A stretch of 64,000 bases of DNA from Bacteroidota bacterium (GCA_018267615.1 JAFDYD010000019.1:29327-93326); one strand, 5' to 3'; positions 11,269 through 31,536 are shown, numbered from the stretch's first letter. Notes: generated by a model from the letters alone, not told the origin. Translations and numbers: made by a program.

Positions 11269-11373
11269 AAGTTTTTTTATAAATAAAAATGGCGATTATA
11301 ATTGAATTATCATTCCCGTTCAACAAAAAAAATGATAAGTCCGCGGAATCACTATCCTCAAATTTGATTCAAA

Positions 11374-11409
11374 AAAATAAAACCCGGCAACAATGCCGGG
11401 TTTTATTTT
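11374..11409. terminator. Intrinsic terminator downstream of fusA (bidirectional-type hairpin)
   Basis: aaaataaaacccggca-acaa-tgccgggttttatttt, 16-bp perfect stem with A/T tails. Confidence 0.85.
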
Positions 11410-11427
11410 ATCAAAAAACATTTTTTG

Positions 11428-13719: not shown

Positions 13720-13727
13720 CAAAGGTA
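13720..13727 (-). promoter_or_regulatory. -7 promoter element (TACCTTTG) upstream of fusA
   Basis: Exact TAnnTTTG match ~145 nt before the fusA ATG; -33 box not clear. Confidence 0.7.
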
Positions 13728-13917: not shown

Positions 13918-14661
13918 TCAACCGATCAATTTGAGGAACTCATCTTTTTTCCTTCTGGCTAAATCCACAAAATTTCCATTCTGCATTTCAATTTGGCCGC
14001 CATCACCCCGGATGTAGCGTTTTATGTATTGGAGATTGATAATATGAGAATGATGTGCGCGGAAAAAAACTTCTGCCGGCAACAGATCTTCGAATTCTTT
14101 AAGCGTTCTGCTTGCAACCAGTTTTGGGTGATTGGTGAAATAGATGGCGGTGTAATTACTTTGAGCTTCGAGATGAATAATGTCGCCAATATTAAAAAAG
14201 AGCAGACCATCCAATGTCGGAATCGCCAGTTTGTTTAGGGCTAATCCGGGATGGAGATTTTCCTCTAACGCTTTCAGTTTTTGCGGTGTATTGTTTTGAG
14301 ATTGTTGTTTTATTTTTTCGACGCATGAGCGCAACTCTTCTATATCGACCGGTTTTAATAAATAATCGAACGCCGCAAACTTGATCGCCTTGATTGCATA
14401 TTGATCGTACGCTGTGGTAAAAATGATATGAAAATTTTTGTTTTCAATTCTCCGAAGCATTTCAAATCCATCCATGCGAGGCATTTCGATATCGAGGAAA
14501 ATAATATTTGGTTGAAATTTTTTTATTTGTTCGATGCCTTCTTCACCGCTGGTCGCCTCAGCAACGATGGACAGATCTTTGCAATAGTCAATTATTTTTT
14601 GTTTTAAGGCAAGCCTTCCTTTCAATTCGTCATCTATAATAATCGCCTTTAGCATGATCAT
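13918..14661 (-). CDS. LytR/AlgR-family response regulator (REC + LytTR)
   Basis: IIIDDE, FLDIEMPRMDGF, FTTAY, DYLLKP; C-terminal FFRAHHSHIIN; ATGA overlap with the kinase. Confidence 0.95.
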   Translation of the reverse strand: MIMLKAIIIDDELKGRLALKQKIIDYCKDLSIVAEATSGEEGIEQIKKFQPNIIFLDIEMPRMDGFEMLRRIENKNFHIIFTTAYDQYAIKAIKFAAFDYLLKPVDIEELRSCVEKIKQQSQNNTPQKLKALEENLHPGLALNKLAIPTLDGLLFFNIGDIIHLEAQSNYTAIYFTNHPKLVASRTLKEFEDLLPAEVFFRAHHSHIINLQYIKRYIRGDGGQIEMQNGNFVDLARRKKDEFLKLIG

Positions 14662-17600
14662 TGAATTTTTAGTATTACCTGCACACGAGTACCTGTGGGC
14701 ATTTGCTGTTCATGTAAATCTGTAATCGTAACAGAAGCTTTATTTTCTCTATTGAACAATCTTACCCTGTCGTTGCTCATTTCAATTCCATAAGATTGCT
14801 TGTCTTTTTTATCTGTATTTTTTATTGCCTGTCTCCCTACTCCGTTATCTTCCACAATATAAATCAGGTGACCATTTTCTTTCGTTACAGAAATAGAAAG
14901 TTTTCCTTTAGCATCCGACCGGTATCTCAATCCATGTAAAATTGCATTTTCAACGTAAGGTTGTATGACCAATGGAGGAACTTTATAATCGTCTTGCAAC
15001 AATGCAGCATCCGCATCAATCTCGCAGGAGAATTTGTTATCATTCCTAAATTGCTCGAGTTCGATATACAGTTGCAATGTTTCCAGATCCTTTGTCAATG
15101 TCACCGTATTTTGTTTTGAACTATCAAGAATATTCCGGATCAGTTTTGCAAATTTGTTGAGATAAACAGTCGCGAGATATTTATCATTGCTTTGAATCAA
15201 CGCATCGATGCTATTGATACAATTAAAGATAAAATGCGGGTTCATCTGTGCACGCAAAGCCATCATTTCTGTTTCAGCCACCTGTTGTTTCAACGCGGCT
15301 TCGCGGCGAACTATAATTATCCTTCTTTTGAACAACAAATAAATAAATGAAGCAATTAACAGTATTGCTCCAACCCTGAACCACCATGTTTGCCAAAATG
15401 GTGGATCGATAATGATTTTAAATGAAGTAATATTTTTCGTGTTCGCCTGGTCGTCAGTCGTCACTTCAAAATCATAATGACCCGGTGGCAGATTGGTGTA
15501 ATTCGCTTCACCGGAAAGATCGGCGGTTACCCAGTTGCGGTCGATATCATGTAACCGGTAATAATATTTTTTATTCTTTAATTGAGAAAAGTCGAGCGCG
15601 GCAAATTCAATGGTTAAAAAATTTTGGGCATAGCTCAAACGAAGTGGCTTACTTTCTAACGTCAACGAATCAACGAAAAATCGCTTGCCAAAAATTTTCA
15701 GCCCTGTTATTTCAACGGGCATCACAGCGTTCACGTTGATATCAAGTGAATCGGGAGAAAAACCAATTGCTTCAGTTGCCGTACTGGTCAACCATCGTCC
15801 ATCGCGCAGCACGTAAAAATTATCCATATCAAAAGACGAGGTCACAACACCGCGTTCGGTGTGATAACTGATCAATTTGTTTTCCTCGATATTATATCGA
15901 TACAAATTATAATCCGCCGTGAACCAGATATTTCCTTTCTTATCTTTTCCAATTGCCATCACTGACGCAGGGAGGATTTTCTTGTTGAAATCAGGAACTG
16001 TAAACTGTTTTGTGATCATATTAAAAAAACAGAAACCTCCATTCTCAAGTCCTACGATGAGGGTGGTGTCGTTTAATTCTTCAATTCCCATACAGCCACT
16101 TGCATAATTTTTTTGGGGGGAATAAGCAGCCGACAATGTTCTGCTTTGCCTGTCAAATACTTTTACACCACTATAGGTACTGATCCAGCACCTGTTTTTG
16201 CTATCGATATAAATGAACTGTATTCCGTTGTTGACAAAATCTGGTGACATGGTTCCTCCATAACTGATAAATTGATTTCTCTTGTCACTCCACTCGATAA
16301 TTTTTCCGTTGTGTAAGCCAAACAAAACATTTCCCCCCGAATCCGCTCGCATACACCGGATGGTTGAATTTTCAAAAATAGCAGGCTGAGTAGTTGTAAT
16401 TGAACCAGTCGATGGTTCATACACATGCAGGTACCCATGTTGGCATCCAACCCAGATTTTTCCATCATCTCTTTCAATTAAGTTCCATACCATATTGGAC
16501 TCAAAACTTTTACCAAAATTTATTTTTTTGATAAAGTTCCAATCTTTATCAAACACAGTTACACCGCCACCATAAATACCCACCATCAAATCTCCATTTC
16601 TTGTTTCCAGGAAAGAAGTGATGCCGCCCTTCGACAATGTTTTCTCATTATTATCATCATGCCTGATCGTTTTAAAATATTCGTGATATGGATTGAAAAT
16701 ATTAATGCCCTTATCTGTGCCTAACCAGATATTGTCATCGCGATCCTGGAAAATTGTTGATACTTCGTAATTGTACTGAAGTCCGTTGACATTGTTATTG
16801 TCGGAGCGGATGCTGGTGAAACTATCATTTTCCGGATGATACCGCAGTAATCCAACATTACATGTCGCAATCCACAAATGCTTTCGGTTATCTTCGAATA
16901 TGCAAGTCACATACATCGGGTCGTTGTTATTGCTGTCGTGATTCTTTGCTCGAATTTCGGGCAATGAATAAGTAACAATTTTTTTAGTCCCTGCAACACA
17001 CTTATAAAATTTGTGGTTCCAAGTATAGAACCAAATATTATCCTGACTGTCTACCATAACACCACGAAATCCCGAATTCTCCATCTCAAGGATCGGATGG
17101 CGGAGAACGTTATTTTTTTTCGTGTATACTTGGCCGGTACTATCGTCGAACATCAATACATAATCATAACTGACAGCCCATGTCTGGTGGTTTTTTTCAT
17201 CGTACGCTATGGAGAATGAGTTGCAGGTAAATTTTTTGATGGATGCATCATAATGATAAACATAATAGTATCCAAACATCCAGTAGTCGCCACCTACACC
17301 GCTATATCTTTTTTTCCCTACAGTATCCAACGCAATATCTGTGCTGTCAAAATCTGAAACTTTATTAGTGAGCAAATTAAATTTTTTATTGCCTGCAATG
17401 GATACCATGAACAACTGATGATCCTGAGAGGGTTTGATATTAACTACTGCAATCAAACTTTTATTCTTGTCATTCAATTCATCTCGGTAGGTGATGAAGC
17501 GTGTACCATCGTATCGCTGAAATCCATTGCGTGTGCCTATCCATATAAAACCTCGTTTATCCTGCGATATCGAATAAACTGCATCATTCGACAATCCATC

Positions 17601-17702
17601 GAGGTGACTGATATGCCTGAAAATATATTTCGACTGGCTTCGTCCGTCCACTGCAACAAAGAAAAAAACAAGACTCAATAAAATATAGATTACAGAGCGC
17701 AT
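14658..17702 (-). CDS. LytS/YehU-type sensor histidine kinase with periplasmic beta-propeller and Y_Y_Y domain
   Basis: Repeated D..G.IWIGT blades, ANYTNLPPGHYDFEV, TM after PPFWQTWWF, H-box ALRAQMNPHFIFN, QPYVENAILHG, EDNGVG. Confidence 0.93.
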   Translation of the reverse strand: MRSVIYILLSLVFFFVAVDGRSQSKYIFRHISHLDGLSNDAVYSISQDKRGFIWIGTRNGFQRYDGTRFITYRDELNDKNKSLIAVVNIKPSQDHQLFMVSIAGNKKFNLLTNKVSDFDSTDIALDTVGKKRYSGVGGDYWMFGYYYVYHYDASIKKFTCNSFSIAYDEKNHQTWAVSYDYVLMFDDSTGQVYTKKNNVLRHPILEMENSGFRGVMVDSQDNIWFYTWNHKFYKCVAGTKKIVTYSLPEIRAKNHDSNNNDPMYVTCIFEDNRKHLWIATCNVGLLRYHPENDSFTSIRSDNNNVNGLQYNYEVSTIFQDRDDNIWLGTDKGINIFNPYHEYFKTIRHDDNNEKTLSKGGITSFLETRNGDLMVGIYGGGVTVFDKDWNFIKKINFGKSFESNMVWNLIERDDGKIWVGCQHGYLHVYEPSTGSITTTQPAIFENSTIRCMRADSGGNVLFGLHNGKIIEWSDKRNQFISYGGTMSPDFVNNGIQFIYIDSKNRCWISTYSGVKVFDRQSRTLSAAYSPQKNYASGCMGIEELNDTTLIVGLENGGFCFFNMITKQFTVPDFNKKILPASVMAIGKDKKGNIWFTADYNLYRYNIEENKLISYHTERGVVTSSFDMDNFYVLRDGRWLTSTATEAIGFSPDSLDINVNAVMPVEITGLKIFGKRFFVDSLTLESKPLRLSYAQNFLTIEFAALDFSQLKNKKYYYRLHDIDRNWVTADLSGEANYTNLPPGHYDFEVTTDDQANTKNITSFKIIIDPPFWQTWWFRVGAILLIASFIYLLFKRRIIIVRREAALKQQVAETEMMALRAQMNPHFIFNCINSIDALIQSNDKYLATVYLNKFAKLIRNILDSSKQNTVTLTKDLETLQLYIELEQFRNDNKFSCEIDADAALLQDDYKVPPLVIQPYVENAILHGLRYRSDAKGKLSISVTKENGHLIYIVEDNGVGRQAIKNTDKKDKQSYGIEMSNDRVRLFNRENKASVTITDLHEQQMPTGTRVQVILKIQ

Positions 17703-17742
17703 CTCTTAAAGCTACACGAAAAAAATCACAAGCACTGCCATG

Positions 17743-20025
17743 TCAGTGCAATGTAAATATGTCGACCACCGAACTAACACTTCCACTAATCAGAGCCCCT
17801 CCACCAAACAACGCCTTATTACCGGATGATGCGGCAGCCAATCCTCTTCTTTTCGAACTCAACTGCGCTGTCGTCCATGTTCCGGTGTCGGTATCATAAA
17901 CGTCTACTGTTTGAGAATAAGATACACTGCCCTCATCACCTCCGCCAAAAAGAACTTTGTTGCCAATTGCTGTTGCAGCAAGCATTGTTCTTTTCGTACT
18001 CAGATGAGCAACCGACCAGGTATTGGCAGATACATCGTAAATATCTACCGTGCTTGAAAAATAATTACTGTTAATGATAGCGGAATTAGTTTGTCCGCCT
18101 GCAAAAAATATCTTCCCGCCTGCCGCGGTTGCGGTAAGATTATATCTGGCTTCACTCAACTGCGCAGTCTGCCATGAATCGGTGAGTACGTCGTAAATAT
18201 CTACCGTTGCGGTAGGCAAGGCATCCGGTGAAGCCGCCTTCAACCCGCCAGCAAAAACGATCTTATTACCCATCGCCGCGGCTGCAAGATATCCGCGGCG
18301 TTCGCTTAGCTGACTAGTTGTCCAAGTGCCCGATGTTGTATTGTATATATCCACCACATTGGAAAAAATATTTCCACTGTTCGAATAATAAATATCACCA
18401 CCTCCAAAAAGTATTTTATCACCTGCTCCAGCGCCTGCCAAAAAATCTCTCGCCTCACTCAATTGAGCACTGCTCCATGTTCCAGATAAAGCATTATAAA
18501 TATCCACTGTTTTGCTATACAGGCTACCACTGGCGCCGTTGTTGCGCCCTCCGGCAAATAGTATCATATTACCTGCGGCCGCACCTGCAAGATCCGATTT
18601 CTCCTCAGTGAGTTGATGGCTTGTCCAACTTCCCGTATTCACATCATAAATATCCGCCGTCTTTGAAAAAAAAGAACCTCCATTTACTAAACCACCGGCA
18701 AAAACAATTTTCCCTGCCGATGCCGCTGCAGCTAACGCTTCTTTAGATTCCGATATCGACGTACTGCCACTGAGGCCTACTGCACCGGCCGAGGCGCCAA
18801 GGTATTTTATTGTAGTGCCGCCACTTATCAGATTCCCCACCTGAACAAAAATCGAAACATCTGTATTCGAAGGAATCGAATATGGCGGCATTATAACAAC
18901 GATCTTTTGATTAGTCCAGGACAAGATTTGAGGATCTGCTTGCGTAACTCCTAAATATATCAATGCTATTGACGAGGGCAACGTCCTGTCGCCAAAGAAC
19001 AGACCGGTGAATGTAACAGTATCACTACCTCCGAAAGTGTAACCTCCTTTACTCGATTGAATATTGTCGACGCGTGGAATGATCTGCATACGATAAGGAT
19101 CACTCGGTACGTCATTCACGCGAACTACTACCTGTGCAAAATTAGAATCACGAGGAATATTCGTCTCAAACGTACTGTCTGTATTAATCAGTAACTGGTT
19201 ACCATCCGGTGTAAAAATGGAGTTTGGATAGGTAGAAATAATTCCGTCCCGCACGATATGATCTGGTTTTACAGATACGCCGTTAACATAGAGTTTAATG
19301 CTGCTGTCTTGCGGAGGAAAAGGTTCGAAATTGACAGAATAACCTCCCTCATTCCAACCGTGCCCAACTTTGGTGATTACCGGCTTTACCGATTTAGTAT
19401 AACTGAACTGAACGCCGTTCGAAGTTTTTCCACTAACCATCACCGTTACTACAACAGTAGCTTCGGCTTGATTAGTTGCATCTGGCGCTGAAACAATGAT
19501 CAGCGTATCGGAAAATTTTTTGATTGTAGCGGGCTTCGTTCCAAAATTGACTTTTACAGAATCCTGGTTCTGCCCGAAACCGACTCCTCGAATGGCTACG
19601 GTTGTATCGACCCATCCGAAGGAAGGAGAAATGCTATTAATGCTGATTGCTTTTTCATCATAAGTAAATAGCGGACCTTCCGCTTCTTGGTTGTTTACAG
19701 ATATGTGGACATGCCCTGTTCCTGTGTTAGAATTGATCGTAGCCAATACAACTGTGCTCGTAGAAGGGGAATCTATTTGTACCAGTACACCATTTACACT
19801 CACCTTATTCTGAAACGCATGATTGGAAAAGCCGGTTCCATATAGTCTTATCTGTGTTCCTGTTCGCCCAGTCGAGGGCGCAATGCTATCAATAACCGGA
19901 TTATCCGGCGGCTCCTGGAAAACATTCACCTTCGCACAGGTTGATATCAACACAGAAAAAAGAATTCCAACGACAACATTTCCGCACCATCGCAGCATGT
20001 TCTGATTGATATATGAATCATTCAT
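17743..20025 (-). CDS. Putative lipoprotein: IPT/TIG domains + seven kelch-like repeats
   Basis: Hydrophobic stretch ending VLISTC (near-lipobox); PVIDSIAP..GT.I..G.GF IPT units; 7 x (LAAAA.GNK..F.GG...VDIY...W) at 17743-18753; true start may be MLRWC (19998). Confidence 0.8.
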   Translation of the reverse strand: MNDSYINQNMLRWCGNVVVGILFSVLISTCAKVNVFQEPPDNPVIDSIAPSTGRTGTQIRLYGTGFSNHAFQNKVSVNGVLVQIDSPSTSTVVLATINSNTGTGHVHISVNNQEAEGPLFTYDEKAISINSISPSFGWVDTTVAIRGVGFGQNQDSVKVNFGTKPATIKKFSDTLIIVSAPDATNQAEATVVVTVMVSGKTSNGVQFSYTKSVKPVITKVGHGWNEGGYSVNFEPFPPQDSSIKLYVNGVSVKPDHIVRDGIISTYPNSIFTPDGNQLLINTDSTFETNIPRDSNFAQVVVRVNDVPSDPYRMQIIPRVDNIQSSKGGYTFGGSDTVTFTGLFFGDRTLPSSIALIYLGVTQADPQILSWTNQKIVVIMPPYSIPSNTDVSIFVQVGNLISGGTTIKYLGASAGAVGLSGSTSISESKEALAAAASAGKIVFAGGLVNGGSFFSKTADIYDVNTGSWTSHQLTEEKSDLAGAAAGNMILFAGGRNNGASGSLYSKTVDIYNALSGTWSSAQLSEARDFLAGAGAGDKILFGGGDIYYSNSGNIFSNVVDIYNTTSGTWTTSQLSERRGYLAAAAMGNKIVFAGGLKAASPDALPTATVDIYDVLTDSWQTAQLSEARYNLTATAAGGKIFFAGGQTNSAIINSNYFSSTVDIYDVSANTWSVAHLSTKRTMLAATAIGNKVLFGGGDEGSVSYSQTVDVYDTDTGTWTTAQLSSKRRGLAAASSGNKALFGGGALISGSVSSVVDIFTLH

Positions 20026-20079
20026 AAAAAAAATTTATCAGGCATTTGATTATTGGCATCTCCCTAATGAAACGCCACA

Positions 20080-22302
20080 CTATTTTCCAATAGCAACTCC
20101 TTTTCTTTCGTATTTGACAATTTGTGAATTCACCAAGACCGATGCGCCACCGTCGCTCGTTACTGCTTTAATTGCATATTGATAATTTCCTTCTCCAGGA
20201 AGAGTATTATCGATGAATTCATTTTTATCTGCTGCGACACTTCTGTACATCTCGAGTCCATTATTGTTGTAGTTCCTGTATACAATGAAGCGCATATGCG
20301 TTTTGTCCACCGAATTATATTTCCATGTCAAATGAATTTCACGATTGTCTGTTATGTCCACTTTGAGTTCATCCACAGCGGGTCGCTTACCACTGTCGTA
20401 TATACGTGCACGTAAGGGAAATGAACGTTCAGAAGACAAACCCGAAGAATCGACGGCAGTCAGAGAATAATCATATTCTTTCAATCGCACAATATTGCGA
20501 TCGACGTAAATTGAAGTATCTTTTTTCAAGGAATCCAGCGACTTCCAGACGCTATCATTTTTCTCTTTTCTCCAAATTACCTGCCTCGCGACATCCTCAC
20601 TACTGCTGCGCGCCCACTGCAATACCACGCTGCTATCCGTTATTAAAAAGTGATTGATAACAGGTGCTACAGGTGGAACGATATCAGGCTTTGTCAATTC
20701 AATAATTTTAGAATACGCGCTCGGGTTTCCTGCTTTATCGAATGCACATATCCGGTAATAAATATGACGGGTTAGTGTTTTGATGCTAATCGTATCCGTA
20801 AATAAAGTATCCGTGAGGAATTTACTGTTCAATATATAAAATGCATGTGTGGGATTGTTAGATGCATATACATTGTAACCTTGCAGATCCATTTCTTTGT
20901 TCCATCGCCAATGCAAACGAACGACTCCTGCAGTATCAATGCTTCCTGCTAAACCCACCGGCATTGCCGGCGCGATGCTATCCACAATCATCGCATACGC
21001 CGGCATGGAACGCGATGCATTTCCCGCTGTGTCGATCGCTGCAACGATGTAAAAATTTTTATCCCAGGTGACGGCAAAACGATCGACATAACTTTGTGCC
21101 GTGGCCGGAAGCAACACAGTATCGAGCGGAAAAAAAGGACCGTTGACGGAACTTCCACGTCCCACTAAAAATCCAGCGAGATCTTTTTCCTTTGCGGATT
21201 TTTGCCAGCTAATTTTCACTTCACTGCCTTTTGTATTTTCCGCTTTTACATTGAATGGACTTCCCGGACTCGTTTTATCTGCTCCTGCAATTTTTACGGG
21301 AGAAGAAGGGTTGCTGATTTCACCAAATGCAGTCACGCCTCTGACCCGATACACATACAACTTATAATTTTGTGGAATGCTGTCAGTGTAATGCATCCAA
21401 TCTCTTCTTTCCTTATCATTGCCTCCACCATCGATATATGGCAATGTATTTAAACGACGAAAAGATTTTCCATTATCATCCGAACGCTCGAGATAATAAC
21501 AAGTGAATTGATGAACAGCCGCAACCTTGTTCCAATACAACGTAATTGTCTTATCCCACGGCATCGCAAACACAGGCAGCATATCCGGAAGTTTATATGA
21601 TTGTTTGGTGGAAACCAAAACCGAAACAGTGTCCGCAGCCAATTGGCCGAGTGCAGGAGAAATAATTAAGTAGTAGTACAATTTATCTTTTTCAATCGTT
21701 TTATCTTCCCAACTCCACGCCATTCCTGTTGCGATTTCAGGATGCAGATCGGAATTGAGTAATGCAATCCCTAAACGATTTTCCATGTCCGCATACTTCG
21801 TATATGCTTCTCCCCAATTGAACTTTCCATTTTGCTTACCAGATGTTTCAAACTTCTTTCCATACAGTACTTCAGCAGCGATAGCCGCCGCAGTATCTTC
21901 TGGAGGAAATTGTTTTTTCCATTGATCGAGTGGAAATGGTTTTAATGGAGAGGTTGTCAACTGCGTTGAATGCGTAAGCGGATCGCTGCTTTTGGAATCC
22001 ACTTCAAATCGATACAATTGATAACCTGATTCATTGGTTTTATCCCACGCAGCAGCGTTCTTCGGAGCCCATCGTAGTATTACGGAAGAACCAAAATATT
22101 TTCCCATCGCGATCAACTTTTTCATATTGATAAGACTGTCTCTTCCGGAAACTACACTCGTTGTTTTCTCATTTTTTTCTTCTTTCGCTTTTTTCTTCCG
22201 CTGCGTGTTTCCATGCTGAATGAAACAAAAAAGAAAAATGATACAGGCAATCATCCTGCACAACCACATTTTTCTCAATATGAAAAGAGATATACGTTTC
22301 AT
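20080..22302 (-). CDS. Secreted protein with five fibronectin type III-like repeats
   Basis: Signal peptide; repeated P......V.L.W ... Y.Y.V.A..G..S units. Confidence 0.8.
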   Translation of the reverse strand: MKRISLFILRKMWLCRMIACIIFLFCFIQHGNTQRKKKAKEEKNEKTTSVVSGRDSLINMKKLIAMGKYFGSSVILRWAPKNAAAWDKTNESGYQLYRFEVDSKSSDPLTHSTQLTTSPLKPFPLDQWKKQFPPEDTAAAIAAEVLYGKKFETSGKQNGKFNWGEAYTKYADMENRLGIALLNSDLHPEIATGMAWSWEDKTIEKDKLYYYLIISPALGQLAADTVSVLVSTKQSYKLPDMLPVFAMPWDKTITLYWNKVAAVHQFTCYYLERSDDNGKSFRRLNTLPYIDGGGNDKERRDWMHYTDSIPQNYKLYVYRVRGVTAFGEISNPSSPVKIAGADKTSPGSPFNVKAENTKGSEVKISWQKSAKEKDLAGFLVGRGSSVNGPFFPLDTVLLPATAQSYVDRFAVTWDKNFYIVAAIDTAGNASRSMPAYAMIVDSIAPAMPVGLAGSIDTAGVVRLHWRWNKEMDLQGYNVYASNNPTHAFYILNSKFLTDTLFTDTISIKTLTRHIYYRICAFDKAGNPSAYSKIIELTKPDIVPPVAPVINHFLITDSSVVLQWARSSSEDVARQVIWRKEKNDSVWKSLDSLKKDTSIYVDRNIVRLKEYDYSLTAVDSSGLSSERSFPLRARIYDSGKRPAVDELKVDITDNREIHLTWKYNSVDKTHMRFIVYRNYNNNGLEMYRSVAADKNEFIDNTLPGEGNYQYAIKAVTSDGGASVLVNSQIVKYERKGVAIGK

Positions 22303-22312
22303 AATTTGGCAA

Positions 22313-22975
22313 TTAAAATTTCAACGGAACTTCGATATTAAAAGATGAAACCGTCGGTGTATATGCATTGAATTGAACAGCTGCGCCGTTGATGATTTGC
22401 AGCGGTGGAAAATGCACGGGCGTTTGATCATTCGCGCGCACAACCATCGTGGATCTTTTTGTACCATAATTTTGGAATTGGACAAAACTCGCGTCACTCT
22501 GGATATACGCAGAAGCTGCTATTGCCAGTGCGATATCGAGAGGCGTTCCTGACAGGTATAAACTCTGCGCAGCGGTTTTGTAATCGAAATAACCACTCCA
22601 CCATGCTAACGCCGACTGGTATGCGAAAGTCAGATTCTTGTCGTTTGGTGGTGGAAGTGTAATGATCGGACTACTCGCTTTTACAGGTGTTGTAATAGAT
22701 ATTGCCGGCGGCGGAATAGTAACCGCAGCGTAATTAATGGATGAAGTAGGTGCAGTGCTTGTTATAGCCGATCCATTTAGTGCAGCCATTGCGCCCGAGT
22801 TGGAAAGTTTGAACTGAGCAAAAGCAGGGACCACTTCAATCAAACAACATATAAGCAACAAACAAACGCACCTCCACATCGGATAATATTTTCGTGTGTA
22901 CGTTGCCGTTATTACCTGTTCTGAAAAATTCAGTTTACCAATATTCATCGTGATATGTTTTGAATATTTAATCAT
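22313..22975 (-). CDS. Hypothetical secreted protein with Ser/Thr/Pro-rich linker
   Basis: In-operon ORF, ATGA overlap with the 1881-aa gene; signal-like MWRCVCLLLICCLIEVVPAFA suggests a later start (about 22879). Confidence 0.65.
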   Translation of the reverse strand: MIKYSKHITMNIGKLNFSEQVITATYTRKYYPMWRCVCLLLICCLIEVVPAFAQFKLSNSGAMAALNGSAITSTAPTSSINYAAVTIPPPAISITTPVKASSPIITLPPPNDKNLTFAYQSALAWWSGYFDYKTAAQSLYLSGTPLDIALAIAASAYIQSDASFVQFQNYGTKRSTMVVRANDQTPVHFPPLQIINGAAVQFNAYTPTVSSFNIEVPLKF

Positions 22976-25900
22976 GGCTGGATTTTGACACTTGTTGCTG
23001 AAATTTTAACCGGAGACGACGGTTGCGTCGATGTTTTCACCGCACTGAGATTGGGCGTGGTCAGGATACTATGATTGCCCAACAATACATAAGGAATTTC
23101 ATTCGACTGCAATGGTGGATCATATCCTGTTACCATGAATGGTTCCCTTCCTCTCACATATGCACGATTCACCGTGAATGTATTGCTGGTGTTGCCGGAA
23201 GGACTGTTCAGTTCCCACAGACTATTGTAAGAAACCATCGGATCAAACTGACTCATTTGTTTGTAGTTTGTTACCAGCGGTGCGATGACGCCCAGCATCC
23301 ATGGGTTATCACCATATTTTTCGTCGAGATTTACAAGTGGCGGAATAATCCAGTCATTCGATCCATTCCCCGAACCATCATATGCACAACCGTTAGCATC
23401 ATACACATCCAAACCTTCAAGCATCGATACCTGGAAGAAAGGCATCAGCAGGTTCCAACTCACGCCGCCAGTTTGATAAGCGCCACCCATTTTATCTTGC
23501 AGTGTTTTAAACCGGCTCGTTCTGAAGAAATAATCGTAGATCTCAATATCATCGGGCTTACTGAGTGAAGCAGTAGCGTCTGCTGCAAAATTTTTCAGCA
23601 CCACATAATTCGTCTTAGCTCCGTTGGATGGATCATTCAAATATTGGTTGCGCGTAGTAACAAGCGGAGAATTCGCGCCCATTCTCAACTGATCGATATA
23701 TTGCGTGAGATCAGCACCTGTTTTTTTGTAAATAGGTCTTTTTACAATTCTCAATTTGTAAACCGTTGCAGGCGACAATTGCGGAATATCAAAATTGAGA
23801 TACTTGCCTTGCTGCGTAACAGGTTCTTCAAAATTATCTTTCGTCGAAATAAATTGTATAAACAAATCATAACCGGTTACTACAGTAGACTGAAACGCCG
23901 TTCTTAAATTGGAGCCCGTTGAAGCAGGAGGATCCTGCATGCATGGAATATCGCGCACTAACTGTATATATCCATGTGCACGCTGACCCGGCAAAAAATA
24001 ACGTTGATTGGTAAATGGATAATTCGCACATACAGCCGGGCCACCAATTGTGTGCCCGAGTATATCGAGCCCCATCGACACACTTTCATCCAATCGCGTA
24101 ATACAACCACCAGTCATAAATGAAACCGTTGTATCCTGTATGCGGGACTCAGTTACCTCTTGCCAATTTCCGTTGGCATCACGCTGAAATCCGTACACTG
24201 TTAATTTAACAAGATGTTTCGCCGATGGATCAAAAGCATTTTGCCATCCATACAACAACGCATTGTGATAAACTGCCTGGATGGAAGCGCCTCCTTCAGT
24301 ATATACCGATCCATCTTCGTTCATATAACCAGTATATGTATACGCTTTTCCACCCACTTCACTCACACTAAGTTTTTTCACGATAACCAGCAAAGTCTTC
24401 TGCACATTTTTACCGGTGTTGTCATCTTTTACTGTCACCGAAAATTCCTGGTTGACGGGGAAATTGAAAGCCACATTGATGTTGCTCATGATGCTGATAT
24501 TCGCAGCTCCATCTCCGGGGAAAATAGCGCTTACCAGCGGCAAACCACCAAATGGATTCGCACTGAGTTTACACCCGCCTTCATCCGCGCTTGAATATTT
24601 AACATGAAAGTTCATGTGTCCGCTGATCAATCCATCGAGCACGCTGTAATCTGATTCGAGCCATCCATCAAATACAAATGGATTTGGAAAACCGGCTTGC
24701 AGTGTTGCTTTGAAACCGACCTCCGCCACGCTGATTTTGCCTTTATAAAACCACACATCTACTACGAGGCCAAATGCAAATGAACCGCTCGCGTAGAGAT
24801 CTCCAAATGCATAATATCCATCAAGCCCAAGTAAATCTCCATTATCGCATTTGCGTGCGTCTTTGATCAATGCGAGATCAAATCCCAATCCTGCTTTTAG
24901 TTCCAGGTAAAATATAAGAAACTCAAGATTCAAATCTGCGGCAGCACTCGCTCCTAACAATACACCTGCAACAGTCGGAATTGTTTTTGTTTGTTGTGTG
25001 ACAGGATCCGTATATGAATCCGTACTCATAATTTTTCCGGTGACTTCGTCGTATATAGATTGCAGACTGGCAGGCAGTCGCAAAACATTTCCTACATTCT
25101 GATAAGTTTTGAAATCGAACTTGAGTAGACCTAAAGTTGACAACGTTAAATTAACGCGGTGGTCCGCGGGCTCGGGCTCTCCAATTTTAAAATACCAATC
25201 ACCCGTATTAAAATTGGTGAGTATGCCGAGCATCCCGTTTCCTTTTATAAAACCACCAGGTAGGTTGATATTCATATTAATTCCCGCAGTGAATTCGTTC
25301 TGCGAAAAATCATATTGAATAAATCCGTCGCCACGAACCATCGCTGATTCTATTTCGCCGAGTTTTGTGTACAAGCCTGCATCTATATTGATTGCAAGTT
25401 TATGCAAGGCCAAAGTCTGTTGATCTATCTCAACACTCAACGTCCCCATTCCTACAAAAACGTTTCCATCGGTTGTTCCCAAAGTGACGCTTCCTTTAAA
25501 TCCGGTTACACCTGCAGCAGGTTTATACATCGACATCGGATCTACAGACGTAATATATTTCGTTACCATCGGCTCCTGGTTTAGCGTCATGTTGTAATAT
25601 ACGCCGCCGCCAAATCCAAATATGCTCAATGGTACGATGCCGCCACCAATAGGAATTCCTGGCGGTGGTAAATTGAAACTTGCGCCGACAAAAAAATAAT
25701 TGAAACTTTTTTTACCAAAAAGTGCGCTTGCTTTCACAGAGAATCCAGGAGGAAAAGTGGCATCCTGCAACACACCATCCACGCCATTTCCCCATTGCGG
25801 ATTATCATCAAAAAATCTTACAAAACCATGAACATGCACAGGGCCAACCCATCCCTCCAAGCCAATTTCATCTACATGCACTTGAGGGAGGCGCGCTTTC

Positions 25901-28617
25901 AGTTTACCACCGACCAAATCAAAACCGCCTACTATAGAAAATGAAGTATGCGCTTTCGGAATGCTGGCAATGTCAGCGAGTGTAACATCTAATGAAAATA
26001 CAAGTCCGAGTTTGTCGGGACTTAATTTTGGTGACTCAGGAAATGATATTGGTAAGCCGTTGATAAATTTTTCTGGACTTGATTGACCGGTTACAAGTTG
26101 TCCGTCGCTGATATACGGCGCCGAAGAATTCAACGTAAGATTTTGAAAACTGATCGCTTTGATATCTACCTGTCCCAATCCTCCGGGCAATGTCGGATTC
26201 AAAGAAAGATTGCCGGTCAATTTTGCAGTGGCTTTGAATCCTACATCTCCGCCAACAGTTACACCGATATAAGAAGATTTGTCGATATTCATATGCACGA
26301 TCCACATCGGCACATTCAAATTATCCTTCGGCTGAATCACGAATTGAAATTGCAATCCATTATTGTTACTCAACGTGCAGGTATAATCCAATTCTGAATT
26401 AGGATCTGTTTCATCTGCTATCGGCAGTATTACCCGCCCTTTCATGTTGCCCTGCACGAAGGAATTTTTTTTGAAAACACCTTCTATTCGATCAACAGAA
26501 TATGCCCATGTATCAAGTGCGCCTTGATCTATCGGCAAAATATTATCGATGCCAAGTGTTCCGCTGAGACCCTGGTTGTCGATTATAAAACTTTGTGCAG
26601 ATCCAACCAATCTATTGTTGCCTGTAAATGATTTCAGCAATGCGGGCAATTCCACTTGCATGGAAGGAATTAAAAATCCGCGCCATGTTGGAACAAGTCC
26701 GTCTGTATAATCTGCCGGCATTCCAGCCGGATTTTGTTTATCCGAATGATCGTAAAAAGCACTACCGGGCGCAAAATTAAAATCTGTATTACCGGTGATA
26801 TGGAATGCATCAATACTTACAGATGCAATCCAATCAGCCCAGGATTTTGTGGATTCAACAGTGAGTAACGCTTTCACCGGCGTACCATCTTTTTTTTGCA
26901 ACAGTGCCGGAGAGAAACTGTATTCACCACGAATGCGCATGCTCTGAAATCCATCTGCGCCAAATTCAATATAAGTTCCCAGGTCGCCTGCGTCGGCGGC
27001 TTTCAATGCAATGCCTGTTGTAGCGAGATCAAAATCTTTTTCGAGATAGATAGTCGCTTGTCCACATAAAGTTTTTTCCTTCGAGAAGCAAATGCCTCTT
27101 CCACCCAATGCCACCGTCATGCCTTCTTCCGGAATTTCGAAGGCAGCGCCTGCATCAAAATAAGCCTGCTGCGGTGTGAAGACCATATTGGTAACAGCAA
27201 TGGTGATCTGGCTCGAACTCACATTACTGATTCCTAACGGTAAGCTGTAGCCGAACGCCTCCTGCGGATTCAAATTACTGGTAATGTAATTGGAAATGTA
27301 TTGCGGAAAATTTTGCGCTTGTGCAGGATCCAGTGTGATGTTCGGATTCGTTGGATCATAATCCGGTAACAGGCTTGCCGCATCGCTTCTGCGTTTAGCT
27401 ACTGCATTTCCTGAAATAACCTGGTTACTGTTATTGATTTTGATATTCTGAAAACTGACACTGACCGGTATCAATTTTAAAACAGGCACCTGGATTTTTC
27501 CTTCGCCGGTTAAAGCGCCGCCGTTGCTACTGGTAATTTTTGTGATCGTTAAATCGAATCCATCGATGGTGAGTTTGCTTCCTACCTGGATAGCAGATAA
27601 ATTACTCTTTGATTTTGAATCGATGATCTGCATTTTACAATCATCGCTACATGTCACGATGCCTTTTGAATCGATTGTCATGGCCATCATCGTTGTGGCC
27701 AACTGCCCATATTCAAATTCGATTACTTCACTGCTTCCGTTATTTCGAAAAGTTGCGCCGCCCGAAGGATCGTTGGCCGTTATTTTCATTGCATATGTGC
27801 GGCCCGCTAGCAATTGTGGATATAATGCAGAATATAAAAACATCGGCGTTCCAGTGACCGTTGTTTCGAAAAATGGAACACTGGTAGATTGCATAGCGTC
27901 GTTAGGATTTCTGCCACCAAAAATTTCCACCAGTCGAATGGTGTATTGTGTTGATGGAGGTGCGCCGGGTGGTGTTGTCCATCGGAAAATAATATTTTGT
28001 GCCAGGCCGGTAATCGCAATGGTGTCCTGATCCATCGGGCTTAGGATGGTCGGCGGCTCGAGTGTGGAAACCGAAAAAATATTGCTGCAACCAATAGGAT
28101 CTTCGTCAGACAACGGTTTGTGTGTGGCCGCATCAAAAGCGCGTACACATACCTGGTAGGTTCCTTCCGGCAAACCTTGTTCGCCAAAAACAGAAGGTTT
28201 GATGCTATTGCTGCCGGAAATATATACGAGGCTGTTCGGATCAAATAAACTGCCGGCTTCAATGTCGTTCAAAGTTTTTGTTTCAAAAGCTTTTAGGTTG
28301 ATGGATGCCGGCTGATATCCTTTGGCAGTAGTTACTGTCACCCCGTTATCCCCGGTTACTGTTCCATTCAAGTAAATCGTATAGGCATTACCGGTATGAT
28401 TTGTGATCATAACCATTACCAGTCCCGGTGTATTGCTGAACTGGTAGAGTTTAGTAGGATATGTTCCCTGCGGCAATCGGTTGATATGAACACTAATGCT
28501 GATTTCCTGTTGCGCCAAAACGGTGTGCGTACCGGATGTACATATGATCAGCAGAAGAAAGTAAAAATATTTTTTGAATCGAATCAACATATCGTGAACA
28601 TTTAAAGTCAAATTCAT
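22972..28617 (-). CDS. Very large secreted multi-domain hypothetical protein (TANFOR-like N-terminus, long beta-rich core, Ig-like and C-terminal domains)
   Basis: 5.6-kb open frame, signal peptide ending VLA-QQ; LPEGTYQVCVRAFD...LEPPTILSP N-terminal module recognised by eye; family name not verified by search. Confidence 0.75.
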   Translation of the reverse strand: MNLTLNVHDMLIRFKKYFYFLLLIICTSGTHTVLAQQEISISVHINRLPQGTYPTKLYQFSNTPGLVMVMITNHTGNAYTIYLNGTVTGDNGVTVTTAKGYQPASINLKAFETKTLNDIEAGSLFDPNSLVYISGSNSIKPSVFGEQGLPEGTYQVCVRAFDAATHKPLSDEDPIGCSNIFSVSTLEPPTILSPMDQDTIAITGLAQNIIFRWTTPPGAPPSTQYTIRLVEIFGGRNPNDAMQSTSVPFFETTVTGTPMFLYSALYPQLLAGRTYAMKITANDPSGGATFRNNGSSEVIEFEYGQLATTMMAMTIDSKGIVTCSDDCKMQIIDSKSKSNLSAIQVGSKLTIDGFDLTITKITSSNGGALTGEGKIQVPVLKLIPVSVSFQNIKINNSNQVISGNAVAKRRSDAASLLPDYDPTNPNITLDPAQAQNFPQYISNYITSNLNPQEAFGYSLPLGISNVSSSQITIAVTNMVFTPQQAYFDAGAAFEIPEEGMTVALGGRGICFSKEKTLCGQATIYLEKDFDLATTGIALKAADAGDLGTYIEFGADGFQSMRIRGEYSFSPALLQKKDGTPVKALLTVESTKSWADWIASVSIDAFHITGNTDFNFAPGSAFYDHSDKQNPAGMPADYTDGLVPTWRGFLIPSMQVELPALLKSFTGNNRLVGSAQSFIIDNQGLSGTLGIDNILPIDQGALDTWAYSVDRIEGVFKKNSFVQGNMKGRVILPIADETDPNSELDYTCTLSNNNGLQFQFVIQPKDNLNVPMWIVHMNIDKSSYIGVTVGGDVGFKATAKLTGNLSLNPTLPGGLGQVDIKAISFQNLTLNSSAPYISDGQLVTGQSSPEKFINGLPISFPESPKLSPDKLGLVFSLDVTLADIASIPKAHTSFSIVGGFDLVGGKLKARLPQVHVDEIGLEGWVGPVHVHGFVRFFDDNPQWGNGVDGVLQDATFPPGFSVKASALFGKKSFNYFFVGASFNLPPPGIPIGGGIVPLSIFGFGGGVYYNMTLNQEPMVTKYITSVDPMSMYKPAAGVTGFKGSVTLGTTDGNVFVGMGTLSVEIDQQTLALHKLAINIDAGLYTKLGEIESAMVRGDGFIQYDFSQNEFTAGINMNINLPGGFIKGNGMLGILTNFNTGDWYFKIGEPEPADHRVNLTLSTLGLLKFDFKTYQNVGNVLRLPASLQSIYDEVTGKIMSTDSYTDPVTQQTKTIPTVAGVLLGASAAADLNLEFLIFYLELKAGLGFDLALIKDARKCDNGDLLGLDGYYAFGDLYASGSFAFGLVVDVWFYKGKISVAEVGFKATLQAGFPNPFVFDGWLESDYSVLDGLISGHMNFHVKYSSADEGGCKLSANPFGGLPLVSAIFPGDGAANISIMSNINVAFNFPVNQEFSVTVKDDNTGKNVQKTLLVIVKKLSVSEVGGKAYTYTGYMNEDGSVYTEGGASIQAVYHNALLYGWQNAFDPSAKHLVKLTVYGFQRDANGNWQEVTESRIQDTTVSFMTGGCITRLDESVSMGLDILGHTIGGPAVCANYPFTNQRYFLPGQRAHGYIQLVRDIPCMQDPPASTGSNLRTAFQSTVVTGYDLFIQFISTKDNFEEPVTQQGKYLNFDIPQLSPATVYKLRIVKRPIYKKTGADLTQYIDQLRMGANSPLVTTRNQYLNDPSNGAKTNYVVLKNFAADATASLSKPDDIEIYDYFFRTSRFKTLQDKMGGAYQTGGVSWNLLMPFFQVSMLEGLDVYDANGCAYDGSGNGSNDWIIPPLVNLDEKYGDNPWMLGVIAPLVTNYKQMSQFDPMVSYNSLWELNSPSGNTSNTFTVNRAYVRGREPFMVTGYDPPLQSNEIPYVLLGNHSILTTPNLSAVKTSTQPSSPVKISATSVKIQP

Positions 28618-28651
28618 TTAATAGAGTCAACCCACGAGTATTTTCATTTCG

Positions 28652-30370
28652 TCAAAAAGAAAATCCATATCCGACTTCTACACGGCTCTCTGAATATTTC
28701 GGATAATATGATGTGGGTTGATCAGGCGTATTGCTCGTAAAATATGCGGTCAGATGTAGCGCATGTTTCTTATAAAAGTTGTACCTGCTCTGCAATGATG
28801 CTGTAATGATTTTTCCTTTTTCTTCGTTGCGTTTGCTCAAGAGATATCCGCCACTGGCCGAGATGGTGATCTTCCCTTTCTTCCAGGATTTAGATGCACC
28901 AACCGTGGCGCCCATGTTTTGATCGGTCAATTGATCGCCCTTCATGGCCGTCTGATTCAGTGAAATGAAAAAAGAAGTATTATGTTCAACCAGGTTCAAT
29001 TGATAATTCAAAACATAATTGGTGGTGTTGATGTCACCGCTGACGCTGTCAATTCTTGCCGGGTTCAGTTCCCTCGCCTGGTTGATATTGGCTGAAAAAA
29101 CAATTGAATGCGCGACGCTGGTGCCTGCAATTGTATAACGCGGCGTAATAGAAAACTGCCTGCTCGATTCCACCAATTTCAATGAATCGGCAAAGCGTAT
29201 AGTCTTCACCGTTTGATTGATGGAATAATTACTGAAACTAAGATCGATCCCAAATTGCCGTGTGATTTCTGCAGACAGATTTGCGGACCCGATTATTTTT
29301 TTTGATCGGGCTCTTTTTGACTTGGCAAGATCATCATGCTGAATGCCGAGACTACCACTAAAACGCAACCTGCTTTTGAATAAGGTAAATGAAGGAGCCA
29401 CCGTGTAACTTTCCAGGTCGTTGTTCAAAAAATAAGCTCCCATCGATTGATATCCCGGATCGATATGACGATATTGAAACCTGAGGGAAAAATTTCTTGT
29501 CTTGTAGCGGATAGCAGCTTCGATGGCACCGTATAATTCACTGCTCGTATTCACGCGAACAATACGGCTGATTTTTTTCACATCGTTATCAAACGAAGAA
29601 TCCTGCACGAGCGGAGAATTAATATCGTTTGTATATAGACTCATCGCGCCATCACTTTCAAAACTGAGATGCTGTTTCCAAATGCTCAAACGCATATTAT
29701 ATCCAACGACTGTGTTCTCCGCAGGTGTGATCCCCGATGAGTCGATAAAACCCTTACTCATTTTTATGCTCGAAGGATCATCTTTTGCTTTCAATGCGAT
29801 CAGATCGATAAAATTGTTTTGTGTTCCGTATCCAATTTTAATTGCACCGCCTGTCCGCCGATAAGAGAAGTTAGAGAAGTAAAGACTTTGTGCAGTATCC
29901 AATGAAGTTGCCTTGTTGAATTGACCGTACATCACAGCGAATCTGAATTTGCCTGGATTGAGTTCAACGCCTCCGCCAAGAAAAGTATGTCCGGCTAAAG
30001 TGAATGGTGAAAAATTAAGACTGCGATAGCCTGCGTGAACGGTTATCCATTTGTAAGTCGGACTCATTCCGAATTGATTGAATGGCTGCGAGAAACTATT
30101 CTGCTGTTTTCCGATAATAAATGAGAAAGGTATTCGCCATCCATATATAGAAATGACAGGAGAACCAGTAATCACATAATTAAAAGGGAGATAACGATTG
30201 GGAATGCCGTTGGCATTGTAGAAAATCGCGGTAGCGTCAACACTTCCTGATAAAACAAAAGGTTTTGCGTGAATCATTTGCTCCACCTGCTGCGCATGCA
30301 ATCTTTGCGCAATTGCAAATGAAGAAATCATCAAAATAAAAAATAATTTATTCCATGTAGGGGTGTTCAT
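28652..30370 (-). CDS. Putative outer-membrane beta-barrel protein of unknown function
   Basis: Signal peptide (..RLHA-QQ), alternating amphipathic strands throughout, C-terminal RVEVGYGFSF beta-signal. Confidence 0.8.
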   Translation of the reverse strand: MNTPTWNKLFFILMISSFAIAQRLHAQQVEQMIHAKPFVLSGSVDATAIFYNANGIPNRYLPFNYVITGSPVISIYGWRIPFSFIIGKQQNSFSQPFNQFGMSPTYKWITVHAGYRSLNFSPFTLAGHTFLGGGVELNPGKFRFAVMYGQFNKATSLDTAQSLYFSNFSYRRTGGAIKIGYGTQNNFIDLIALKAKDDPSSIKMSKGFIDSSGITPAENTVVGYNMRLSIWKQHLSFESDGAMSLYTNDINSPLVQDSSFDNDVKKISRIVRVNTSSELYGAIEAAIRYKTRNFSLRFQYRHIDPGYQSMGAYFLNNDLESYTVAPSFTLFKSRLRFSGSLGIQHDDLAKSKRARSKKIIGSANLSAEITRQFGIDLSFSNYSINQTVKTIRFADSLKLVESSRQFSITPRYTIAGTSVAHSIVFSANINQARELNPARIDSVSGDINTTNYVLNYQLNLVEHNTSFFISLNQTAMKGDQLTDQNMGATVGASKSWKKGKITISASGGYLLSKRNEEKGKIITASLQSRYNFYKKHALHLTAYFTSNTPDQPTSYYPKYSESRVEVGYGFSF

Positions 30371-30568: not shown

Positions 30569-30598
30569 AAAAAAAATCCGCAGTAGAATTACTGCGGA
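30569..30598 (-). terminator. Intrinsic terminator after rpsG
   Basis: tccgcagta-gaat-tactgcgga 9-bp stem followed by a U-run on the minus strand. Confidence 0.85.
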
Positions 30599-30622
30599 CT
30601 CATTTATAAAAAATTGGTTGAA

Positions 30623-31090
30623 CTAGATTCTGAAGTGAGCAAAAGCTTTATTTGCTTCTGCCATACGGTGTGTATCTTCTTTTTTCTTAAAAGCACCACC
30701 TTCACCTTTGCTTGCTGCCACGATTTCATTAGCAAGTTTTTCAGCCATGCTTTTTCCATTTCTTTCCCTACTATAACGGATAAGCCATTTCATGCTAAGG
30801 GAAATTTTTCTGTCTGCACGAACTTCTGCGGGAATTTGGAAAGTAGCACCACCAATACGGCGACTACGAACTTCTACAGCCGGAGTCACATTATTCAATG
30901 CTCTTTTCCAGATTTCGTAGCCATCTTCATTGGTCTGTTTTGCAACTTTGTCAATTGCATTGTAGAAAATTTCGAAGGCTGTATTTTTTTTACCCTGCCA
31001 CATCAGGTTATTGACGAAACGAGTAACCAGCTGGTCATTGTATCTTGCGTCTTTTGCGAGGGGTAATTTTTTTGCTTGCGTTTTCCTCAT
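30623..31090 (-). CDS. rpsG: 30S ribosomal protein S7
   Basis: [30 protein letters not shown]. Confidence 0.98.
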
Positions 31091-31143
31091 TGATTTATAA
31101 AATTATTTCAGGTTTCGCTTATTCTTATTAAAAATATTTCAGG

Positions 31144-31536
31144 TTATTTTTTTGCGCCTGCTTTTCCTTTTTCTCTTTTAGTTCCGTATTTAGAGCGGCT
31201 TTTTTTACGATCCTTCACACCGGCAGTATCCAGGCTTCCGCGAACGATATGGTAACGTACACCCGGTAAATCTTTAACGCGACCACCGCGTATCAACACG
31301 ATAGAGTGTTCCTGAAGATTGTGACCTTCACCAGGAATATACGCGATAACTTCAACCTTATTCGTCAAGCGAACCTTAGCCACTTTACGTAAAGCGGAGT
31401 TTGGCTTCTTTGGAGTTGTTGTATATACGCGGGTACAAACGCCACGACGCTGTGGACATGCATCCAAAGCCCTGGACTTGCTTTTTGCTCTGATGATCTC
31501 TCTTCCTTTTCGAACTAATTGCTGTATTGTAGGCAT
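31144..31536 (-). CDS. rpsL: 30S ribosomal protein S12
   Basis: [37 protein letters not shown]. Confidence 0.99.

Follow-up and report, generated by a model that had tools for sequence, protein, structure and literature searches.

How a giant exported protein is handled in the cell envelope of Bacteroidota is the question raised by a block of seven genes at positions 13918–30370 of a 64,000-nucleotide stretch of DNA from a Bacteroidota bacterium (GCA_018267615.1 JAFDYD010000019.1:29327-93326; the whole stretch is referred to below as the window). The original prediction, made from the nucleotide sequence alone, regarded the block as a candidate undescribed system for envelope export or surface assembly, in which an outer-membrane beta-barrel is encoded together with a protein of 1881 amino acids (hereafter, the giant). 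We find that the giant belongs to the already published TANFOR class (Jana, Salomon & Bosis 2020, PMC7073777), so that the cluster is not undescribed in this respect, whereas the trio formed by the barrel, the TANFOR-headed giant and a protein with fibronectin type III (FN3) repeats matches no described machine. What is known, then, is the class of the giant; what is new is its association with the barrel and FN3 partners as a constant trio. The interpretation that we favour, and which appears on the whole somewhat probable, is that the barrel docks the TANFOR head and in this way exports or anchors an exchangeable giant, with constant help from the FN3 protein.

TANFOR-headed proteins have been defined as a class of polymorphic toxins of Bacteroidetes, and BaCT, the C-terminal domain of one of them, has been shown to be a DNase; Sec signals were noted, and Fn3, SprB, PKD and type IX secretion system (T9SS) tail domains were found to be enriched in the vicinity of the TANFOR genes (PMC7073777). 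Export through the T9SS was proposed in the same paper as a speculation, the export route being an acknowledged open question; the word ‘barrel’ does not occur there, nor is a constant FN3 partner reported (PMC7073777). The trio described here may be the export or anchoring route for these published giants and toxins. The question is posed in an ecologically dominant phylum, and the barrel and FN3 partners, which recur as constant companions in hundreds of species and have no entry in Pfam or NCBIfam, open it to direct experiment. Should the barrel prove to be a conduit or an anchor, it would constitute a new outer-membrane route of secretion or display, and the head would provide a portable tag for surface display in Bacteroidota. 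The specific additions made by the window are the insertion of the block in the str operon, the seven-gene form of the locus, the figures on co-divergence, the three body classes, the base rate of the T9SS and the fusion of head and barrel.

The seven-gene operon and the recurrence of the trio

The genes of the block, and the recognizable parts of the giant, are as follows.

28652–30370, minus strand: outer-membrane beta-barrel of an unannotated family; 572 amino acids, signal peptide, about 26 predicted strands, C-terminal beta-signal VGYGFSF
22972–28617, minus strand: the giant; 1881 amino acids, with a divergent TANFOR head at the N-terminus
27697–28512, minus strand: TANFOR-type head of the giant, residues ~36–307, consisting of a TANFOR domain and an fn3-like domain; Cys157 and Cys177 invariant
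24418–27660, minus strand: class-specific all-beta core of the giant, residues ~320–1400
22972–24417, minus strand: C-terminal ~480 residues of the giant, variable between subfamilies of its class
22313–22975, minus strand: small exported protein; 220-amino-acid open reading frame (ORF) with a probable start at Met33 (22879)
20080–22302, minus strand: FN3-repeat protein, the third constant member of the trio; 740 amino acids
17743–20025, minus strand: probable lipoprotein with IPT/TIG domain and kelch beta-propeller; 760 amino acids (Pfam TIG 2e-23, Kelch_1 2e-29)
14658–17702, minus strand: sensor histidine kinase; 1014 amino acids, Reg_prop/Y_Y_Y propeller, one transmembrane helix, LytS-type His_kinase and HATPase domains (Pfam)
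13918–14661, minus strand: LytTR-type response regulator; 247 amino acids (Pfam Response_reg 3e-24, LytTR 7.5e-16)

All seven ORFs are co-oriented on the minus strand, running from 30370 down to 13918, and our ORF reading of the window reproduced the originally predicted coordinates exactly, along with the gaps of 55 nt or less and the two ATGA overlaps. From the barrel to the regulator, the intergenic spacing is 34, −4, 10, 54, 40 and −4 nt, the overlaps joining the giant to the 220-residue ORF and the kinase to the LytTR regulator. Tight gaps, the two overlaps, a terminator upstream, the same gene order in a metagenome-assembled genome and the insertion of the block as a whole (see below) all mark the seven genes as one unit. 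The export signals ascribed to the first five products were recovered as strongly hydrophobic N-terminal segments, one of which is also present in the kinase; since a cysteine follows the h-region of the kelch protein, the latter is a probable lipoprotein.

Pfam and NCBIfam searches identified IPT/TIG and kelch domains in the 760-residue protein, a weak fn3 match in the 740-residue protein, Reg_prop, Y_Y_Y and His_kinase (PF06580) domains in the kinase, and Response_reg and LytTR domains in the regulator; for the 220-residue ORF, they returned nothing of note, with a single sub-threshold match. In the barrel, the giant and the 220-residue protein, the same databases yielded no T9SS C-terminal domain and no Plug/TonB, SusC/SusD, POTRA, usher, two-partner secretion (TPS) or autotransporter domain, and neither a type A (PF18962/TIGR04183) nor a type B (TIGR04131) T9SS sorting domain was detected in any of the five exported proteins. 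The statements that the locus has no T9SS sorting domain or SusC/SusD pair and displays none of the signatures of chaperone-usher, two-partner or curli pathways are upheld within the scope of these searches.

That clusters of a barrel, a TANFOR protein and an FN3 protein recur across Bacteroidetes had been suggested in the original prediction; a survey of 401 evenly drawn Bacteroidota genomes verifies it. At a threshold of E ≤ 5e-12, the barrel profile produced 82 matches in 64 of the 401 genomes, and heads other than the window's own were found in 65; barrel and head are both present in 60 genomes, with 4 genomes carrying the barrel only and 5 the head only. For 50 of the 82 barrel genes, a head lies within 2.5 kb downstream on the same strand, and for 67 it lies within 10 kb, always on the same strand; in the second common arrangement, the giant is encoded upstream of the barrel. 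The FN3 protein has its own family of full-length relatives (E-values down to 1e-141 over query residues ~63–730), which is present in 55 of the 64 barrel-positive genomes; where coordinates were checked, its gene adjoins that of the barrel or the giant, in three different gene orders. The window's protein shares 25% identity with the partner in locus L005. The loci number at least 547, and among the named hosts are Pedobacter, Sphingobacterium, Mucilaginibacter, Dyadobacter, Hymenobacter, Arcicella, Chryseolinea, Puia, Petrimonas and Lentimicrobium. The proposal that the five exported genes form a system is thus retained for the barrel, giant and FN3 protein, which are conserved phylum-wide, but not for the 220-residue and kelch proteins, which are lineage-restricted.

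The giant, its exchangeable body and the association of head and barrel

On its own, the giant matches the TANFOR model TIGR02542 of NCBIfam below threshold (E 7.5e-4, residues 52–171, 19 bits versus a cut-off of 67). However, the model is matched by 23 of 24 close homologs of the head, with E-values down to 4.8e-35, which identifies the head as a divergent TANFOR domain with an fn3-like domain behind it, the giant being a member of the class by transitive homology; two homologs of its body have been named TANFOR proteins by JGI. The head comprises 3164 representative clusters at E ≤ 1e-3 and nearly always occupies residues ~25–290 of proteins of ~1000–6400 amino acids, occasionally in repeated form. 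It is also the only part common to all giants. In the alignment with the giant of Chitinophaga niabensis (L004), only residues 33–307 can be matched (65% identity), the remaining 1570 residues being unrelated, and residues 320–1881 have only ~30 relatives among 5.8 billion proteins. Among 40 representative giants, three body classes were distinguished, with 20, 10 and 10 members; hidden Markov models of the window giant's body matched none of the other body classes and revealed no domain common across classes, an earlier comparison having given a weak BLAST similarity of the bodies around a GFGGG motif.

Comparison across the class divides the giant of the window into the head, a core (~320–1400) common to 9 of 39 representative giants, with similarity ending at about residue 1400, and the last ~480 residues, which differ between subfamilies and in which identity to distant class members falls. 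A head, a conserved core and a variable C-terminus, followed by a small ORF, faster-evolving than the giant and overlapping its stop codon, would be in keeping with a polymorphic toxin, and the class has been published as toxins (PMC7073777); under this explanation, the C-terminal ~480 residues would be an unrecognised toxin and the 220-residue exported protein its periplasmic immunity protein. We consider this unlikely, given that within the closest subfamily the giant is evenly conserved over its whole length without a sharp break, that its C-terminal region gave 9 matches, confined to this subfamily, and occurs on no other scaffold, that Pfam detected no toxin domain in the giant or 21 relatives (22 members in all; only a weak Big_5 match), and that the body is followed by the FN3 gene and the regulators instead of orphan toxin/immunity cassettes. 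With the TANFOR toxins, the giant shares Sec export, the N-terminal head, the variable remainder, a nearby Fn3 protein and a distribution limited to T9SS-bearing Bacteroidota, but its head is divergent and below the model cut-off. Of the two features that define the toxins, namely a toxin domain and a downstream immunity gene, the first was not detected and the second not recognised, the 220-residue ORF being a possible partner, and the sequence comparisons suggest that the giant is a TANFOR class member by its head and falls outside the toxin subset.

A giant adjacent to a barrel gene elsewhere in the survey (L043:10044-16502, 2152 amino acids) contains a weak match to tuberculosis necrotizing toxin (TNT) at residues 1941–2025, which, together with the two small ORFs downstream of it, is in line with the toxin subset of TANFOR proteins described in the literature.

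Exchange of bodies contrasts with the behaviour of the barrel. Relative to the window, C. niabensis (L004) has a barrel with 70% and a head with 65% identity, and a body from another class, whereas L057 has a barrel with 41% and a head with 39% identity, and a body of the same class (34%). Barrel identity hence follows head identity and not body class; the two components diverge in step, with exchange of the body behind the head.

The two components are also found in a single polypeptide. In P0299 (L068:1831-4626), a protein of 931 amino acids, a signal peptide precedes a TANFOR-type head at residues ~34–320 (BLAST 4e-9), which is followed by a Ser/Asn-rich linker and then by a barrel at residues 420–811 (hhalign probability 98.7%, E 3e-16). 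Such fusions, encoded by ORFs of 931–1044 amino acids, occur in three genomes of one genus (also G181:C4 and G325:C31); among 24 mid-sized head-bearing proteins checked, P0299 is the only one. Downstream of it lie genes for two further head-bearing proteins and an FN3 gene. The fusion argues for physical proximity of head and barrel. Its architecture of signal peptide, N-terminal extracytoplasmic module, linker and C-terminal barrel is reminiscent of the classical (type Va) autotransporters, from which it differs in that the barrel is more than twice as large and has no autotransporter domain, and in that the head and the barrel are separate proteins in most genomes, including that of the window. 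In the insert of the P0299 head, residues ~192–230 additionally resemble a fragment of EF-Tu domain 2 (NCBIfam E 1e-7).

The barrel, the route of export and comparison with known systems

The product of the first gene, originally described as a barrel terminating in the beta-signal VGYGFSF, proved to be one: its AlphaFold2 (AF2) model is all-beta (pLDDT 77), with ~26 strands as counted from the DSSP string and no periplasmic domain. The family has at least 1381 homologs in a large protein collection, nearly all of which are labelled ‘hypothetical’, one bearing a generic JGI label and none having a precomputed Pfam domain, and sequence and profile searches of the window's barrel found no match in Pfam, NCBIfam, PADLOC or PDB sequences (the PDB profile being built from 38 members). 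Foldseek ranked MtrB first (TMq 0.47), followed by the PapC/FimD ushers and the barrels of TonB-dependent transporters, matches which indicate a ‘large barrel’ and nothing more specific. In the MtrCAB complex, MtrB forms a sheath of 26 strands around a partner protein that connects the periplasm with the cell surface, but the likeness is one of barrel size and shape, there being no sequence relation and no cytochromes. The most conserved motifs of the family (QPFNQFG.SP.YKW, SMGAYF.NNDLE and RFADSL) are located in or next to low-confidence, non-strand segments of the AF2 model, a placement that would suit partner-binding elements.

Two further observations concern barrel sequences. The barrel ORF reaches ~815–835 amino acids in a number of related families, predominantly one (L043:16546-18993; G022, G047, G051, G239, G355, G391, G243), with an extension of ~250 residues beyond the position of the C-terminal beta-signal that has no Pfam match. 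Separately, ORFs of 790–908 amino acids, mostly one per genome, were noticed in many Bacteroidota (L058:1535-4189, L059:1424-3877, L060:1763-4135, L061:2040-4766); they weakly match positions ~160–355 of the barrel profile (E 1e-6 to 1e-13), have no Pfam or NCBIfam family and look like a second unannotated barrel-like family, their assignment to LptD or another annotated family having been considered and rejected.

According to the favoured interpretation, the core of the locus would be an envelope device of three proteins that occurs throughout the Bacteroidota with a T9SS. The giant would enter the periplasm via Sec, whereupon its N-terminal TANFOR head of ~270 residues would engage the cognate barrel as a docking or threading element, and the barrel would either pass the all-beta body to the surface or hold the giant there by its head, while the FN3 protein, a ~700-residue chain of FN3 domains, might serve as an assisting rod or scaffold. 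Behind the head, the body would be exchangeable cargo, terminating in a polymorphic toxin in some lineages and represented in the window by a class-specific all-beta protein of 1570 residues, accompanied by a small exported protein of its own. The IPT/kelch lipoprotein may be an add-on binding subunit at the surface or in the periplasm, and the Reg_prop/Y_Y_Y kinase and LytTR regulator would switch the operon on upon an extracytoplasmic cue. The roles originally put forward for the FN3 protein as a chaperone, for the kelch protein as a ligand binder and for the kinase in regulation likewise stand as inference. Counted in favour of this scheme are the presence in the giant of a Sec signal without a T9SS C-terminal domain (Pfam, NCBIfam) and, from the model, the size of the barrel (~26 strands) and its best structural match being a partner-sheathing barrel.

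Several points weigh against it. The Foldseek matches of the barrel model are of a kind common to large barrels (TMq ≤ 0.47); the free head-bearing proteins encoded in the fusion locus fit recruitment of head to head as well as docking of head in barrel; the long amphipathic strands modelled for the giant are also compatible with a protein that associates with membrane or lipid and remains within the envelope; no domain of a toxin or adhesin reveals the activity of the giant of the window; and SprA is encoded in all positive genomes, so that the T9SS could be the real exporter. A more far-reaching version, in which the barrel, TANFOR head and FN3 protein constitute an unrecognised outer-membrane secretion or display system, that is, an analogue of two-partner secretion assembled from unrelated parts, with the head as docking signal, whole bodies swapped and no dependence on the T9SS, is possible but, in our assessment, rather doubtful.

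Export by the T9SS is the main rival that we retain, although as an improbable one. In this case, the giant would cross the outer membrane through SprA by means of a non-canonical signal, the barrel would be a cargo-specific adaptor or anchor akin to PorP/SprF, and the FN3 protein would be co-cargo or a spacer. SprA_N was detected in 65 of 65 barrel-positive genomes, compared to 79 of 101 in an even sample of the phylum, and the genomes without it come nearly all from one family, which also lacks the trio; the genome of the window itself encodes SprA. More than 95% of TANFOR genomes have a T9SS, and T9SS cargo genes are enriched near TANFOR genes (PMC7073777); among our loci, L043 and the P0139 contig have Por_Secre_tail genes flanking the trio. 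The suggestion that the barrel is functionally paired with the giant is strengthened by co-occurrence, adjacency, co-divergence and fusion, but these do not establish independence from the T9SS. Nevertheless, the distribution of SprA fits T9SS dependence and simple phylogenetic distribution equally well, and the correlation may be purely phylogenetic because it rests essentially on one T9SS-less family; moreover, the giant, FN3 protein and barrel carry neither a type A nor a type B C-terminal domain, and the barrel has no PorP_SprF match and, with its ~26 strands, is far larger. The same features set the trio apart from SprB/SprF, a T9SS type B cargo system of Bacteroidota in which the gene of a giant surface protein likewise adjoins that of a dedicated outer-membrane barrel needed for display: the recognition element of the trio would be N-terminal and not a C-terminal domain, and its barrel has no relation to PorP/SprF and greatly exceeds them in size.

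The predicted structure of the giant bears on a different explanation, namely that the giant is retained in the periplasm or the outer membrane and forms a large beta-sheet scaffold there, for instance for lipid or glycan handling or as an envelope-spanning bridge, with the barrel serving as the channel of a substrate, whether small or polymeric, and the propeller lipoprotein and hybrid two-component system (HTCS)-like sensor pointing to a locus of nutrient acquisition or envelope maintenance. The AF2 model of residues 311–1510 (pLDDT 75, pTM 0.42) is all-beta, with many antiparallel, amphipathic strands of 12–20 residues, and its best PDB matches by Foldseek were LptD, ApoB100 (the lipid-binding sheet), ushers and Rhs shells; Reg_prop/Y_Y_Y sensors are typical of glycan-sensing systems; and the trio has a GH5 cellulase gene as its immediate neighbour in two metagenomic loci that are unrelated (L002:8731-9876 and L057:5568-6830), while a fucosidase gene flanks the trio of L056. 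However, with all TM-scores at or below 0.16, there is no real structural relative and no fold can be assigned to the body, for which a profile search of the PDB also gave no match, and strand amphipathicity does not tell membrane from soluble beta structure. Furthermore, related TANFOR giants bear nuclease, TNT and other toxin tips that must exit the cell, and the interchange of unrelated bodies behind a constant barrel and head suits cargo better than a fixed part of a machine. An envelope-resident complex of this kind is, accordingly, quite unlikely in our view.

Among known systems, two-partner secretion, including contact-dependent inhibition (TpsB/CdiB with TpsA/CdiA, type Vb), comes closest to the scheme in which the barrel docks the head: one outer-membrane barrel gene adjoins one gene for a giant exoprotein, a conserved N-terminal domain of ~250–300 residues precedes a variable body, and some relatives carry a polymorphic C-terminal toxin with an immunity protein. 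Yet the trio has no Omp85 barrel, POTRA, TPS (Haemagg_act) domain or FHA repeats (Pfam/NCBIfam, E ≤ 0.01), its barrel has ~26 predicted strands versus 16, and it includes a third constant protein, that with FN3 repeats. By analogy, therefore, the device would resemble two-partner secretion in the way it works while having none of the features by which membership in that family is recognised. For the chaperone-usher pathway, the usher (PF00577), a PapD-like chaperone and pilins were not found by Pfam, ushers appearing only among the generic large-barrel matches of Foldseek, and for a SusC/SusD or TonB-dependent uptake locus, no Plug, TonB_dep_Rec or SusD match was obtained (Pfam, NCBIfam).

Accessory genes and insertion in the str operon

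Beyond the trio, the composition of the loci varies, as illustrated by the following examples.

L056 (metagenome-assembled genome, giant ~53% identical): the same seven genes in the same order, among unrelated flanking genes
L057: upstream TIG-NHL gene; kinase with a regulator of the GerE type
P0139 contig: barrel, giant, small ORF and FN3 genes alone
L004: TIG-NHL gene and Reg_prop/Y_Y_Y kinase
L005: LytTR regulator and kinase upstream

The small protein is 37% identical to its positional homolog in L056, the alignment beginning no earlier than residue ~50, beyond the AFA|Q cleavage site; in L057, no homolog was detectable by BLAST, and ORFs of 171–191 amino acids in the same position in other class members have no detectable similarity to it. 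The 32 N-terminal residues of the 220-residue ORF (22879–22975), which precede the signal peptide, have no counterpart in the homolog, and the true start is probably Met33, in which case the ATGA overlap with the giant would disappear. The small protein is a fast-evolving companion specific to one subfamily of giants. The possibility that it is a split-off C-terminus of the giant was rejected, there being no similarity to longer giants.

In the place equivalent to that of the kelch protein, TIG-NHL or TIG-only proteins are encoded in L002, L004, L056 and L057; L004, L056 and L057 have equivalent kinases after the trio, and the regulators are of the LytTR type in L005 and L056 and of the GerE type in L057. 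The small protein, kelch lipoprotein, kinase and regulator are thus frequent but lineage-restricted and replaceable additions and not parts of a universal core. The designation of the last two genes as a LytS/LytTR system holds for the catalytic core of the kinase (PF06580 at 2.4e-20, Pfam) and for the LytTR regulator, which place the pair among two-component systems of this kind, but not for the sensor, which is a periplasmic Reg_prop/Y_Y_Y propeller and not the LytS membrane (5TM-Lyt) domain.

The block is flanked by rpsL and rpsG upstream and by fusA downstream. In the same-genus genomes G401 and G410, rpsG and fusA are ~270 nt apart, whereas in the window the 16.5-kb block lies between them (flanking regions 30623–31536 and 9058–13575). 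Each edge of the block is marked by a recognizable element.

~30569–30599, minus strand: intrinsic-terminator-like hairpin, TCCGCAGTA-ATTC-TACTGCGGA followed by a T-run, just after rpsG; upstream edge of the block
13720–13727, minus strand: TACCTTTG promoter-like motif of fusA; downstream edge of the insertion

The rpsG–fusA spacer of G401 contains an equivalent hairpin after rpsG as well as the fusA motif with its surrounding sequence, as found upstream of fusA in the window. Given the adjacency of rpsG and fusA in the same-genus genomes and the edge motifs shared with G401, the 16.5-kb block is an insertion into the spacer of the str operon; no flanking repeats longer than 10 nt were found at its borders. 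One same-genus genome has neither barrel nor head, which makes the system an accessory one, and the block may have been acquired horizontally as a single operon. A gene for a DPP-IV/S9 peptidase (9058–11268) likewise sits between fusA and the rpsJ cluster.

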